Positions 55,834 to 63,398 are shown, numbered from the stretch's first letter. The stretch: 64,000 nt of DNA from an uncultured Elusimicrobia bacterium (GCA_903879915.1 CAIRNJ010000091.1:95718-159717); one strand, 5' to 3'. Notes: generated by a model from the sequence alone, not told the origin. Numbers and translations: made by a program.

Positions 55834-55997
55834 GTGCCCTTTCAGGGTACTAAAACTCTCTTATTCATACGAAGGCCGGCGTAAGCCAAAAAACTTTCCT
55901 GCCGGGTCCGGCGCCTCTTATCGCGCGCCGGGGAACAAGGTAGACTTATATTAAGAAGTTAGGAGATTCCCGGAAAGCCGTAATAAAGGAGAGCAAT
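55834..55997 (+). promoter_or_regulatory. Type-2 upstream cassette, copy 1
   Basis: Hairpin GTGCCC-tttca-GGGTAC at 55834..55850, then 23 nt, then GGCCGGCGTAAGCCAAAAAACTTTCCTGCCGGGT...GCCTCTTA..., then TAGACT at 55941..55946. It aligns without gaps to 63208..63320. Confidence 0.6.
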
Positions 55998-56130
55998 ATG
56001 CCAAAGGTCTTGATAACTCATGATTTCGCGGTGAAGGCAGAGGCGCCTGGGCGGATACCGCGGCCGAAAGGTCCGGGGCCGCGGCTGGCAGTAAAATAGC
56101 GGGTGCTGCGGCTACGGACGGCTATTGCGT
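55998..56130 (+). pseudogene. Decayed duplicate of the 5' end of gene 56197..57183
   Basis: ATGccaaaggtcttgataac...gggcgcctgggcggataccgcggcc...tccggggccgcggctggcagtaaaatag parallels ATGacaaagatattgataac...gggcgcctgggcgggtaccgccgcc...tccgggccgcggccggcggggaaatag. A stop occurs after 33 codons. Confidence 0.5.
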
Positions 56131-56196
56131 TCCGCGGCTGCCTCCCGGCAACGCCATTGCGTCGCAATAATAAACACGGGGAATAATAGGAGCGAT

Positions 56197-57183
56197 ATGA
56201 CAAAGATATTGATAACGCTGGTTCTTGCGGCGCTGGCCCGGGGCGCCTGGGCGGGTACCGCCGCCAACCAGCTCCGGGCCGCGGCCGGCGGGGAAATAGT
56301 GTACGCGACTGAGCCGCCGGTTTCAGCGCCGGCTAAGGCCGGGCAGGAAGAGGGGCCCTATCTCCCCAGGCTTAAACCCGTATCCTATAGCGATATTACC
56401 GCCGGGCTTAAGAAAGCCCGGGGCCTGGTCTTTGAATGGAAAGAGAATACCGCGGCGCCCAGGTTCGCCGTTCCCTGGACCTATCTTAACGGTAACCATT
56501 GCGCCGACCGCGCCCTGGCTACCTATCTGGCGCTGGCTGCGCCTGACGGCCAGCCTGTGCTGAAGATCCCGCTGTCGCAGGCGGCCGCGAACGCTTACAC
56601 CGCCTCTCCGGCCATAGAAGCCACGCAGATAGACCTGATGGCGCCGATCAACGGAAAGCAAACCCTGTATTTCCCGGACGGCACCTCCAAGGAATATCCC
56701 ATCAGCTGGTCCCACCACAGGGCTTTAGGCGTTAATGTGGACGGCCAGCTTATGGCCATAGACCTGGCCGCTTCCGACGAACCTCTCCCCATAAAGGATT
56801 GGGTCGGCCTGTATTTCCGTGAGTATGAGAAAGTGAAGTGCTCGAATCTGAACGAGGCGGATTATGTGGAGCTGATGATCTATGAGACCTGCTTGCATAA
56901 CGGCTGGATCCCCGGCCCGCACGGGGAAGTGCCGGTGTGCAAGGAACCGAAGCTGACCTGCGGGTATAAGTTCCTGGAGGATGTCGGCTTTGATCCTAAG
57001 GTGAAAGGGGATGCCTGGGGAGGGCTTATCTCCGCGACCGCCGGGGTCGCGTACGCGTTCGCCTCGGACCTGCAGAATTTGCAGGCAGATACGGGATTAA
57101 AACTGGACCCGGTCAAGGAAGTCCCTGATCTGCGTTCGAAGCTGATCCTCGATTATCCCAGTACCTGGACGCATAAGTATTAG
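56197..57183 (+). CDS. Secreted protein-glutaminase-like (papain-fold Cys-His-Asp) protein
   Basis: I moved the start to MTKILITLVLAALARGAWAG (ATG 56197, AGGAG upstream). NGNHCADRALATYL, SWSHHRALGV and MAIDLA parallel DGCYARAHKM, AWSYHVAILV and IIDPS of Chryseobacterium protein-glutaminase. Confidence 0.5.
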   Translation: MTKILITLVLAALARGAWAGTAANQLRAAAGGEIVYATEPPVSAPAKAGQEEGPYLPRLKPVSYSDITAGLKKARGLVFEWKENTAAPRFAVPWTYLNGNHCADRALATYLALAAPDGQPVLKIPLSQAAANAYTASPAIEATQIDLMAPINGKQTLYFPDGTSKEYPISWSHHRALGVNVDGQLMAIDLAASDEPLPIKDWVGLYFREYEKVKCSNLNEADYVELMIYETCLHNGWIPGPHGEVPVCKEPKLTCGYKFLEDVGFDPKVKGDAWGGLISATAGVAYAFASDLQNLQADTGLKLDPVKEVPDLRSKLILDYPSTWTHKY

Positions 57184-57262
57184 CAGCTGCTGAGCCCGCG
57201 TTGCGGGGTATCCGATAAGTAACCAGGTTCTTTTGTAAGAAGCCTTAATAAATATAAAGCCG

Positions 57263-57310
57263 GGGACATAATATCGTGAGGTCTAAACGGTATTATGTCC
57301 CTGACTTTTT
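57263..57310 (+). terminator. Rho-independent terminator
   Basis: GGGACATAATA (57263..57273) pairs with TATTATGTCCC (57291..57301) around a 17-nt loop, followed by TGACTTTTT. Confidence 0.65.
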
Positions 57311-57367
57311 ATGGCGCGTTGTTTTGAATACACAAAGACAAGTTAACGCTACATAATGGAAAACATA

Positions 57368-57396
57368 TTTACAAAAGAATATGTCTGTGATATACT
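57368..57396 (+). promoter_or_regulatory. Sigma70-type promoter of the FG-GAP/C1/C11 operon
   Basis: TTTACA (57368..57373), a 17-nt spacer, then TATACT (57391..57396). Confidence 0.6.
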
Positions 57397-57438
57397 TTCA
57401 GGAGGTTTTTAGCCTGTAGCGCAGCGAAGGAGTAAATA

Positions 57439-61435: not shown

Positions 61436-61442
61436 ACTTAAG

Positions 61443-61676
61443 ATGGACAAACTCAAGAACAGGCTGCGGGTTTTAAGGGCCGAGAGGGACATCTCCCAGG
61501 AAGTGCTGGCCAAGGCCGTGGGCGTGTCGCGGCAGACCATCGTGGCCATCGAGGGGGAGGACTATTCCCCGTCCATCGTGCTGGCTTTGAAGGTAGCCCG
61601 TTACTTCGGTAAAAAAATGGAAGAGGTTTTCTGGCTTGAACCCGTTGCCGGCGAACCTCCGGGCGCAAAGCCGTAA
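61443..61676 (+). CDS. XRE-family HTH transcriptional regulator (77 aa)
   Basis: LRVLRAERDISQEVLAKAVGVSRQTIVAIEGEDYSPSIVLALKVARYFGKKMEEVF is the classic Cro/C1 HTH. Confidence 0.85.
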   Translation: MDKLKNRLRVLRAERDISQEVLAKAVGVSRQTIVAIEGEDYSPSIVLALKVARYFGKKMEEVFWLEPVAGEPPGAKP

Positions 61677-61714
61677 TCCCTTTTCTCCAACTGCCACGGA
61701 CCAAGAACGCAGAA

Positions 61715-61739
61715 GCAGCCCCCGGGCTGCTTTTTTTTT
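61715..61739 (+). terminator. Rho-independent terminator
   Basis: GCAGCC-cccg-GGCTGC followed by TTTTTTTTT. Confidence 0.75.
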
Positions 61740-61755
61740 GCTGAAGCCTGTTCCT

Positions 61756-63057
61756 TTACTGCCGTTTGTTCGCGGCGGGGTAGCCGCCCGGCCAGTCGGT
61801 GCCGGGCAGGTAGCTCGCGGCGTCCAGCTGCGGCATGGGGGCTTCCAGGTAGCCGAGCTTGGTAAGATATTCCGGCACGGCGTTGGGCAGCGTGGTTTTC
61901 AGATCGTAGCCTTTATTGGTCCACAGGGAGATCTTATTCTCGCGCGGCAGCACGCGGTTGAGCAGGATGACCAGATTATTGGTGCAGTTGTTCGTTACGA
62001 GGTGATATTTCTCGCCGGCCCTGTTCACCGCGGCCTGCCGCAGGGATTCCACCAGCAGCTGTCTCATCGCTTCCGGCTTCAGCTTCATGCGGTAAGGGAT
62101 CATCCGTTCTTTGTTCTTCACCACCCTGCCCAGGTAGTCTTCCCAGGTGGCCAGCAGCCAGACGATATCCAGCTGGCTTTTTACTCCCGCCTCCAGGCTG
62201 TACTCCTGTCCCTCGCGCAGATAGCCTTCTATAGAAAGCAGCAGGTTGGAGATCTCCCGGCCGGAAGTATCGGTCACCCCGCCTTTGGCGAACTTGAAAA
62301 GATACATCGAATGCGCGGCTATCCATTCCGGTTCGAAAGGTTTTTTAATGAAATACATCTCCTTGAGCAGTTCCGGCCGTATTTTGGCCGCGGCCCAGTC
62401 GAACTCCGTGCCGGCCGTACGCAGGTCACGGTGCCAGCGCACGTTCTTCATCGCTATGCCGTCCGTGCCGGCGGAAACCAGCTGCACGGGGCGGCTTACG
62501 GGCTGGTACGGCGGCAGCGCCGGAGAGTGCACGGCGGGGTCGTAAACTTCCGCCGACAGCACGCGGAGGAAGTCCAGCCGGTCCGCCTGCGTGGCCGCGG
62601 CCTCTATGTGCACCTGGCGGCCGAACAACCCTTCGGCGGATAATTTGCCGAACATAAGCTTAAAAACTCTGCCGTCGTCCACTTTGAAAGAAGCGGCCTT
62701 GGCGTCGCCGGTAAGCTGCCCGTTAAGCGAATAATGCACGCCGTAGCCGGGAAACTGGCCTTTGATAGCCTTGTTCACGAAAGCCAGGTTTTCAGGGGTT
62801 AGCTGAAGATTGGCAAGGTCCTGCGGGGTTAAGTTAAGCGGCAGGGTGCCGGCCCCGGCGCCCTTATCGATCTTTACCTCGGGGATGGCTATGGGCAGGG
62901 CGTTCGGCGCGGTCTTGCGGTCCTGCAGCGCGTCATACGCTCCGCCCGACGCCAGAGCGTCCCGCAGGTCCGCGGGCGGCGCGTTGTGCTGCTTCGGCCA
63001 GATCAAAATAGCCGCCGTTACTGCCAGGACCGACAGGAAAATGTCGTGCTTTTTCAT
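61756..63057 (-). CDS. Exported DUF4105-like (Lnb N-terminal-like) domain protein
   Basis: N-terminal anchor MKKHDIFLSVLAVTAAILIW. The C-terminal EKYHLVTNNCTNNLVILLNRV resembles the Y-x-x-x-x-NNCT motif of DUF4105. The + ORF 61636..62643 is an antisense shadow. Confidence 0.5.
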   Translation of the reverse strand: MKKHDIFLSVLAVTAAILIWPKQHNAPPADLRDALASGGAYDALQDRKTAPNALPIAIPEVKIDKGAGAGTLPLNLTPQDLANLQLTPENLAFVNKAIKGQFPGYGVHYSLNGQLTGDAKAASFKVDDGRVFKLMFGKLSAEGLFGRQVHIEAAATQADRLDFLRVLSAEVYDPAVHSPALPPYQPVSRPVQLVSAGTDGIAMKNVRWHRDLRTAGTEFDWAAAKIRPELLKEMYFIKKPFEPEWIAAHSMYLFKFAKGGVTDTSGREISNLLLSIEGYLREGQEYSLEAGVKSQLDIVWLLATWEDYLGRVVKNKERMIPYRMKLKPEAMRQLLVESLRQAAVNRAGEKYHLVTNNCTNNLVILLNRVLPRENKISLWTNKGYDLKTTLPNAVPEYLTKLGYLEAPMPQLDAASYLPGTDWPGGYPAANKRQ

Positions 63058-63207
63058 GGTGCCGCCTCCACTTTTCTGTTTAAACCGGATTAAGCCGGTT
63101 TATTTTGCGCGGCAGTATTAATATGCCGGCCTGCGGATGTAAACCCCGCTTGTCTATTATAAAGTAGCCAGACATACTTGTCAATACCCGGCCCGCCGCA
63201 GGTACTC

Positions 63208-63398
63208 GTGCCCCAACGGGGCACTAAAAACGCGCTTTAGGCGCGAGGGCCGGCGTAAGACAAAAGACTTTCCCGCCGGGTACTCGGCCTCTTACTGCGC
63301 GCGCGGATGTCACGTAGAATATATTACGACCCGGCGGCACAAGATCTGTCAGAACTGAGCGTTATGCCGCCGGTCAAACCGGGTCCAGGGAGAGAATT
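63208..63398 (+). promoter_or_regulatory. Type-2 upstream cassette, copy 2
   Basis: Hairpin GTGCCCC-aac-GGGGCAC at 63208..63224, then 23 nt, then GGCCGGCGTAAGACAAAAGACTTTCCCGCCGGGT...GCCTCTTA..., then TAGAAT at 63315..63320. The leader to ATG 63399 is 78 nt. Confidence 0.6.

Follow-up and report, generated by a model that had tools for sequence, protein, structure and literature searches.

A second class of rigidly spaced gene-control cassette, most likely a regulator-dependent promoter, in gut Elusimicrobia and groundwater relatives

Activator-dependent sigma-70 promoters (class I/II activation) have a good or extended -10 element and no -35 element, and in the LysR-type arrangement an autoregulated factor is encoded divergently from its target, with the operator in the shared intergenic region. 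To our knowledge, very little has been described on how transcription is controlled in Elusimicrobia, the gut members of which are essentially uncultured. The closest described phenomenon to the element reported here is promoter reuse, or putative mobile promoters, in prokaryotes, in which highly similar upstream regions precede non-homologous genes within one genome and its relatives (Nijveen, Matus-Garcia & van Passel, 2012; PMC3575422), thereby rewiring such genes into common regulation (PMC3575422). In the present study, we analyzed a stretch of 64,000 nucleotides (nt) from an uncultured Elusimicrobia bacterium (GCA_903879915.1, CAIRNJ010000091.1:95718-159717; hereafter, the window), which belongs to a 174.7-kb contig of a metagenome-assembled genome (MAG) from gut metagenomes. 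Judging from the names carried by homologous proteins, the organism belongs to Elusimicrobia/Elusimicrobiota. Two 113-base stretches in it, 55834-55946 and 63208-63320, are true members of a second class (type 2) of a rigidly spaced gene-control cassette, which is present in gut Elusimicrobia and, in a variant form, in groundwater relatives.

As in promoter reuse (PMC3575422), the similar upstream regions of the cassette precede unrelated genes. Unlike reused promoters, the cassette is long (~115 bp) and modular, with a common core and exchangeable blocks that define several classes; its motif is conserved across deep branches of the phylum, in contrast to near-identical recent copies; and no mobile element is evident with it. 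It is a multi-copy, orientation-specific and block-conserved module in front of unrelated genes, with a common core, class-specific upstream blocks and a linkage to genes of a family designated R. These sequence features are most likely those of a regulator-dependent promoter, and we consider it probable that type 2 is a second class of modular ~115-bp activator/operator-dependent sigma-70-type promoter cassette, confined to one clade of Elusimicrobia, the upstream blocks of which set regulon membership. The two copies in the window, A and B, are composed as follows.

55834..55946, plus strand: type-2 cassette copy A, from the distal dyad to the -10-like hexamer; intergenic, aligned without gaps to copy B and to copies C, C' and D described below.
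55834..55850, plus strand: distal 17-bp dyad of copy A, GTGCCC-tttca-GGGTAC (6-5-6), a putative operator of a dimeric regulator, kept in five gut copies.
55851..55873, plus strand: linker of copy A, starting with TAAAA, with a degenerate second dyad (RAAAC-N3-GTTTY) that is decayed in this copy.
55880..55907, plus strand: middle block of copy A, CGTAAGCCAAAAAACTTTCCTGCCGGGT, (near-)invariant in A-D and common to the groundwater class.
55913..55920, plus strand: GCCTCTTA of copy A, the GCCTC of which is common to all cassette classes (regular-expression and shared-column analysis).
55941..55946, plus strand: -10-like hexamer of copy A, TAGACT; each class has TAnnnT at a constant 23 nt from GCCTC, with a spacer that varies in sequence.
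63208..63320, plus strand: type-2 cassette copy B, with the dyad at 63208-63224, the middle block at 63254-63281, GCCTCTTA at 63287-63294 and TAGAAT at 63315-63320.

All of the layout elements that a preliminary description had assigned to A and B were present at its coordinates. The two copies align without a gap at 77/113 identical positions, which corresponds to a binomial tail of 1e-20, or ~4e-11 after multiplication by all position pairs in the window. Identity was 12/17 in the dyad, 10/23 in the linker, 31/34 in a 34-nt block, 1/5 in the next 5 nt, 8/8 in GCCTCTTA, 10/20 in the variable 20-nt spacer between GCCTCTTA and the hexamer, and 5/6 in the hexamer, against 16/60 in the 60 nt before the cassette and 8/60 in the 60 nt after it. 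Since this likeness ends at the cassette edges, the cassette alone is shared and the flanking genes are not. Conserved blocks separated by a linker and a spacer that vary at a fixed spacing form the pattern expected of protein-contact sites on DNA. The distance of 107 nt from the start of the dyad to the hexamer held in both copies, as did the spacing GCCTC-N23-hexamer, which is also exact in 11 of the 13 type-1 copies in the window, the other two having N24. The window contains two occurrences of the 34-nt block (55874-55907 and 63248-63281) and no others, against 0 expected from shuffles; its 5' part, GGCCGG, is not kept in other copies, and the conserved core is CGTAAGMCRAAARACTTTyC.GCmGGGT. 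Regarding the 23-nt linker, its length and its TAAAA start were as described, and the second, partly conserved dyad lies inside it, being perfect in copy C (GAAAC-act-GTTTC), good in copy D (AAAAC-cgt-GTTTT) and AAAAC-gcgc-TTTA in copy B.

The element is not limited to the two copies initially described. Sequence scans for further copies, which the preliminary description had proposed as a check, revealed copy C in the same species, copy D in a close relative and a sister class in groundwater Elusimicrobia. The lack of additional copies, named in that description as part of what would refute it, is contradicted by these results.

L014 8444-8556 (window-equivalent ~65310-65422, ~1.3 kb past the window end): type-2 copy C, upstream of a gene for a secreted orphan protein of 229 amino acids (aa).
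L007 (close relative): type-2 copy C', the ortholog of copy C.
L007: type-2 copy D, upstream of a small open reading frame (ORF) and a histidine-kinase/nitroreductase/flavodoxin operon.

L014 derives from a different assembly of this species; it matches the window without a difference along 7134 nt and reaches ~8 kb past it. A metagenome scan with part of the block yielded four matches, among which that in L007 was a true copy; those in L004-L006 showed no flanking similarity and were taken as chance. The A/B-specific pattern GGCGTAAGNCAAAANACTTTCC was too strict and had 0 matches in genome contigs, whereas a relaxed core pattern gave matches. All five gut copies (A, B, C, C' and D) align without gaps under the consensus G(T/G)GCCC-N3-5-GGG(C/T)AC, then T(A/G)AAA, at the 5' end and CGTAAG(C/A)C(A/G)AAA(A/G)ACTTT(C/T)C.GC(C/A)GGGT, GCCTCTTA and TA(G/A)A(C/A)T in the 3' part. 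They are all intergenic and oriented as the downstream gene, with the hexamer 51-84 nt before the ATG. The genes at the four sites are unrelated, namely those for a Gln_deamidase-domain protein, a 169-aa orphan and the 229-aa secreted orphan, and the small ORF with the histidine-kinase operon; homologous upstream regions, with the likeness confined to the cassette, hence precede non-homologous genes, which is the pattern that defines promoter reuse. No cassettes were found at loci L008-L012, which carry histidine-kinase homologues (P0003-P0007, paralogs in other contexts), and other GTGCCC dyads near regulator genes were only chance matches inside coding regions (5 in the window versus 7.3 expected). 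Copy D and an adjacent 306-aa minus-strand gene are present in L007 (900-2230), and both are absent from the same site in the source species. At the equivalent of this site (L014 9340-9440, window-equivalent ~66206-66306), ~60 nt stand between the arms of a perfect inverted repeat of 15 nt, GGGACGTATTTGACT...AGTCAAATACGTCCC, which is a possible footprint or small element.

The interpretation in the preliminary description is largely, though not in every part, supported. Type 2 had been proposed to be a diverged sibling of type 1, and the comparison bears this out: the two types have in common the proximal core GG.T.C-N3-4-GCCTC-N23-TAnAnT and differ in their upstream blocks. The regular expression [GT]CCTC-N22-24-TANANT matched 16 sites in the window versus 1.55 in shuffles, comprising the 13 type-1 copies, the 2 type-2 copies and a lone site at 29216(-). 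When anchored on GCCTC, both types have an A(A/T)AAG element at an equal offset and a 17-bp dyad at an equal distance (centres ~71-72 nt upstream), the sequence of which is TTAAGCC-N3-GGCTTAA in type 1 versus GTGCCC-N5-GGGCAC in type 2; the middle blocks differ too. The groundwater class comprises 10 cassettes in three Elusimicrobia MAGs (GWB2_63_22, GWA2_61_42 and GWA2_62_23). Nine of them were all of the matches of a genome scan with the type-2-conserved columns TAAG.C.AAA.ACTTT......GG.T.....GCCTC, and the tenth was found by regular expression. The middle block of this class is TAAGTCTAAAAACTTTTCCGCAGGGTCCTGCGCCTC, the pattern in common with type 2 is TAAG.C.AAA.ACTTT.C..C.GGGT.C...GCCTC, and the 23-nt spacer and TAnnnT are the same; each copy is followed after 20-100 nt by a signal-peptide gene and carries CGCGGA-type repeats instead of the GTGCCC dyad. 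A further class was found in one groundwater Elusimicrobia genome.

L029 9884 and 1323, minus strand: cassettes in which CCGCGTTAAAACGCGG forms the dyad, CGTAAGCC is offset from GCCTC by 31 nt as in type 2, and TATCAT comes after the spacer atgcgcggcggcgcgcaggctgg.

An FGE-sulfatase gene follows one of these two copies, which is also head-to-head with a gene resembling R3, a member of the R family. All classes, including the 13 type-1 copies, share GG..(T)C-N3-4-GCCTC-N23-TAnnnT and are placed in gene orientation ~20-150 nt upstream of start codons. Since the groundwater and L029 classes keep core and middle elements with other dyads, the design of a constant core with exchangeable upstream modules is, judging from these alignments, real and old.

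Other variants of this design were also noted. The lone site at 29216(-), GCCTC-N24-TAAACT, lies in a region (29131-29316, minus strand) that starts right after the R3 stop codon and precedes gene 28289-29131; its upstream part is without type-1 or type-2 blocks and contains a perfect AACAAT-A-ATTGTT dyad, and it may represent a further cassette class. Several type-1 dyads carry symmetric changes in both arms with the 17-bp length kept (window 7613(-), 4027(-) and 51866(+); L026 9899(-) and 12539(-)), giving TTAAACC/GGTTTAA in the window, a variant which adjoins the gene R4, and TTTAGCC/GGCTAAA in L026. These changes point to sub-classes that vary together with the regulator.

At the same position, type 2 has the hexamers TAGACT, TAGAAT, TAGAAT and TAAAAT, type 1 has TAAACT, and the groundwater copies have TAACCT, TACCAT or TATCAT; all classes therefore show the second-position A and sixth-position T of a sigma-70 -10 element (TAnnnT), and TGG before TAnnnT in the groundwater copies constitutes an extended -10. 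This lineage does use canonical -10 hexamers, such as TATAAT, TATACT or TAGAAT before R genes, and the window contains a perfect TTGACA-17-TATAAT at 63184..63156. The cassette resembles activator-dependent sigma-70 promoters in its TAnnnT (with TGn in groundwater), poor -35 and protein-sized blocks at ~-36 to -120. It differs from them in the invariant GCCTC 23 nt before the hexamer and in being a three-part module extending to ~-120. Regarding other sigma factors, no alignment column had the sigma-54 signature GG-N10-GC (-24/-12) in at least four of the five copies.

We propose the following mechanism. TAnnnT would act as a sigma-70-type -10 element without a usable -35, and transcription start sites are predicted ~6-8 nt past the hexamer, near 55952-55954 and 63326-63328. 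If the hexamer is the -10, GCCTC would lie at ~-40 to -36, and GG...GCCTC (~-50 to -36) may be a docking site for an activator or common factor. The type-2 middle block, CGTAAGCC-AAAAGACTTTCC-GCCGGGT (~-75 to -45), would be contacted by a class-specific protein, and the 17-bp dyad GTGCCC-N5-GGGCAC, centred at ~-110, is a candidate high-affinity operator of a dimeric regulator. Activation would be required for transcription, and the upstream blocks would place type-2 genes in a regulon separate from that of type 1. The copies are presumed to have arisen by reuse of the promoter module before unrelated genes. The class-specific reader of type 2 is most likely a paralog of the R family, which is restricted to Elusimicrobia and predicted to have two helix-turn-helix (HTH) domains. 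The R family consists of proteins of ~280-290 aa, four paralogs of which are encoded in the window.

41850-42710, plus strand: R1, 56-67% identical to R2 and R4, in tandem with R2 inside the type-1 cluster.
42723-43604, plus strand: R2, 56-67% identical to R1 and R4.
29314-30150, minus strand: R3, ~25% identical to R1, R2 and R4 (tblastn), candidate regulator of a non-type-1 class.
50896-51765, minus strand: R4, 56-67% identical to R1 and R2, head-to-head with a type-1b cassette on the plus strand (dyad ~51785-51801, GCCTC 51866).

A profile search of the R family retrieved 148 relatives, all annotated as hypothetical, and all of the named ones were from Elusimicrobia. Matches in Pfam, NCBIfam and the PDB were limited to weak ones to winged HTH proteins (E ~1e-3 to 1e-4), with no Pfam family above the threshold. 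An AlphaFold2 model of R3, with a predicted local distance difference test (pLDDT) score of 78, showed five N-terminal helices in a bundle of the kind typical for XRE-type HTH domains, and a winged HTH in the centre; a Foldseek comparison of this model with the PDB gave no significant global match and only local MarR/ArsR/IclR-like winged-HTH similarity. R proteins are accordingly predicted to bind DNA through an XRE-like HTH and a winged HTH.

R genes are head-to-head with cassettes in eight cases, the majority of which show an overlap of the distal dyad with the -35 zone of the R gene's own promoter. R1-clade genes face type-1 cassettes in 6/6 cases (L025-L028 from four other Elusimicrobia, R4 and R1), with distances from the R start codon to GCCTC of 101, 101 and 101 nt (L025-L027), 125 nt (L028), 100 nt (R4) and 275 nt (R1 in the window), and R3-like genes face type-2-like classes in 2/2 cases (the groundwater class at L022 and the CGTAAGCC class at L029). 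The cassette class follows the R clade in 8/8 loci (Fisher test, 6/0 versus 0/2, p ~0.04). TATAAT, TATACT or TAGAAT is found 6-7 nt before the ATG of the R genes (L025-L028 ~9975-10003; window 51763-51790; L022 1928-1955; L029 9975-10003). Since a -10 hexamer is this close to the ATG, R mRNAs are probably leaderless, and in the cases with a distance of 100-101 nt, the distal dyad therefore falls at the -35 zone of the R promoter. In the interval between the type-1 cassette 41574(-) and R1 (41670-41850), a remnant like the usual R promoter and start codon (GATATACTGGTGGCATGAAAACTTAA) is followed by a stop codon; together with a real start located 275 nt, not ~100 nt, from GCCTC, this points to a rearranged R1 locus.

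The linkage of R genes to cassettes is reminiscent of the LysR-type arrangement in that the two are head-to-head and the dyad lies mostly in the -35 zone of R, ~100 nt upstream of the target core promoter. Unlike that arrangement, the predicted regulators combine an XRE-like HTH and a winged HTH with no Pfam family above the threshold, and the same operator and promoter module is copied to many distant genes, with no adjacent regulator gene found for the type-2 copies in the loci examined. The preliminary description had raised the possibility that R paralogs read the upstream blocks, which gains indirect support from the eight head-to-head pairs, in which class follows clade; in the loci examined, no R gene lies beside a type-2 copy. 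We put forward, as a tentative extension that may well prove incorrect, a lineage-specific plug-and-play transcription system in which the unusual core GG-N7-8-GCCTC-N23-TAnnnT would be inactive alone and each R paralog would read its own 17-bp dyad and middle block, with type 2 as one such regulon read by the R3 lineage or another R.

Several points weigh against the interpretation of type 2 as a promoter read by an R protein. In the loci examined, neither an R gene nor another regulator gene was head-to-head with a copy carrying the GTGCCC dyad; R3 in the window is only ~30% identical to the R3-like proteins beside type-2-like cassettes; and a small HTH_3 protein (61443-61676) is an equally near candidate for the type-2 regulator. 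The pairing of clade with class comes from eight loci, and the assignment of DNA binding to R proteins draws on weak profile matches and a model of medium confidence. Concerning the promoter itself, the best match to TTGACA at the -35 position of the five copies was 2-3/6 (TTATCG and CTTACT), GCCTC at 23 nt from the hexamer fits no sigma spacing, -35, UP-element or activator consensus that we know of, and conservation of the hexamer could have a cause other than -10 function.

Among promoter readings, the chief alternative is a promoter of an extracytoplasmic function (ECF) sigma factor, in which the A-rich part of the middle block, AAAA(A/G)ACTTT, would give the -35 (AAC) and GCCTC, 18 nt on, the -10, with TAnnnT being a second promoter or a leader element. 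AAC and GCCTC are 18 nt apart, as are AAC and the -10 element of sigma-E-type promoters in E. coli, the targets of the cassette are mostly secreted or envelope proteins, as in ECF regulons, and two groundwater cassettes lie beside ECF sigma genes: one heads an operon for a lipoprotein, an ECF sigma factor (6293-6892) and a 196-aa protein (L023 5691-7659, minus strand), and the other is divergent to an operon for a small secreted protein, an ECF sigma factor and a 159-aa protein (L020 1790-3671). However, the upstream region of the latter operon itself is without a cassette, and no ECF sigma gene is present in the 64-kb window despite 15 cassettes. Of the five gut copies, copy A alone has AAC at the middle block, the other four having GAC, an argument that does not extend to the groundwater class, where AAC is present; no gut copy has a CGT-type -10 or AAC-N15-19-CGT; and type 1 lacks the middle block and yet keeps GCCTC-N23-TAAACT. 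A spaced, conserved TAnnnT is not part of ECF promoters, and this reading leaves it, and the extended -10 TGG, unexplained. We therefore regard an ECF-type promoter as unlikely.

A role of the cassette as RNA, namely as a transcribed structured 5' leader or small RNA (riboswitch-like or protein-binding) with functional hairpins, is very unlikely. The first hairpin was predicted in every gut copy and copy B folded somewhat better than shuffles (z = -2.3, plus strand), whereas copies C and D folded no better (z = -0.35 and -0.03), and no promoter-like site was found upstream of copy B on the plus strand. The cassettes had no Rfam 15 match at the gathering score or at E <= 1, the sole gathering-score match in the window being a tmRNA gene (8756-9107, plus strand; RF00023, 135.7 bits), and the RNAalifold covariation term was -0.36 kcal/mol, with the low power of five sequences. 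The distal dyad has a constant length in the five gut copies, with single-side mismatches only and no compensated change in the six conserved pairs, such a change being confined to the loop-closing pair. A constant 17-bp dyad with a free centre is expected of operators, and no GTGCCC hairpin accompanies the middle block and core in the groundwater class. We favor reading the distal "hairpin" as a DNA dyad operator (6-5-6) over an acting hairpin. An inner inverted repeat, CCGGCG/YGCCGG, in A and B was rejected as a conserved hairpin because it is broken in C and D: its 5' arm, GGCCGG, is replaced in copy C, and a G:C pair has become A:A in copy D.

We give even less credence to a functionless or selfish repeat, by local duplication or similar to a miniature inverted-repeat transposable element, that lies between genes by chance. 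The presence of only two copies in the window, the gain or loss of copy D with its neighbouring gene between L007 and the source species, and the tandem duplication that adjoins copy A are in its favor. Nevertheless, terminal inverted repeats, target-site duplications and shared flanks were all absent, type-2 copies were always upstream of, and co-oriented with, a start codon, the intervals between conserved blocks are fixed in length and free in sequence, and gut and groundwater Elusimicrobia have the middle block and core in common but not the sequence around them. An invertible promoter was rejected because no inverted-repeat pair brackets A and B and no recombinase was identified among the genes nearby.

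The preferred reading, a regulator-dependent promoter, assigns to copies A and B the following presumed targets and neighbours.

55998..56099, plus strand: decayed tandem duplicate of the ribosome-binding site and first ~33 codons of the downstream gene (by alignment).
56197..57183, plus strand: secreted Gln_deamidase_2-domain protein, presumed target of copy A (Pfam PF18626, E = 1.9e-8).
63156..63184, minus strand: perfect TTGACA-17-TATAAT promoter of the Lnb_N gene, the -35 of which is 23 nt from the copy-B dyad.
63399..63908, plus strand: 169-aa orphan ORF, presumed target of copy B, with no Pfam match.

Copy A starts 162 nt after the stop codon of the co-directional gene 54587-55672, which has no family assignment. 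The decayed duplicate that the preliminary description had placed downstream of copy A is real, as shown by the alignment of 55900-56110 with 56100-56310. The duplication (55985-56100 versus 56185-56300) spans the signal peptide of the Gln_deamidase_2 gene, and its cassette-bearing upstream copy has decayed to a 33-codon ORF. The genes after 56197-57183 are FG-GAP, papain-like and clostripain-like. Just 5' of copy A, the interval 55795-55833 (...CGCTCCTCAGCGGCGCCGCCGCTGGTTGCGTATAGT) resembles type-1 fragments (GCTCCT..., CGCTGGTT, then TCCTC-N22-TATAGT) and may be a remnant of an older cassette. Copy B is in the divergent intergenic region between the Lnb_N-domain gene 61756-63057(-) and 63399-63908(+). 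The 169-aa ORF had no homologue but itself among 5.8 billion proteins, and thus there are no orthologous upstream regions for comparison. Coding tandem repeats are present at 43855-44318, 50287-50713 and 32963-33538, in cassette-driven or neighbouring genes without a family assignment, with units of 60 nt, 108 nt and, Gly/Pro-rich, 15-87 nt, respectively.

In the literature on Elusimicrobia promoter motifs and on TIGR02147/DUF4423, our coverage of which was incomplete, no description of the cassette or the R family was found. The differences from known systems are the module length and strict geometry, GCCTC-N23, the exchange of blocks on a constant core, and the tie to an uncharacterised, phylum-restricted regulator family. 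The proposed reading yields testable predictions on the positions of transcription start sites, dyad-regulator pairs and spacing dependence, and the cassette parts could serve as orthogonal regulator/promoter pairs. If it is true, a scan for the core and class blocks would predict regulons of secreted hydrolases and orphan proteins along with the uncharacterised regulator family that controls them, and the cassette would be a natural example of modular promoter evolution. Should the plug-and-play system also be correct, the exchange of upstream modules, with the core left constant, would build and rewire regulons of secreted proteins in this clade of Elusimicrobia.

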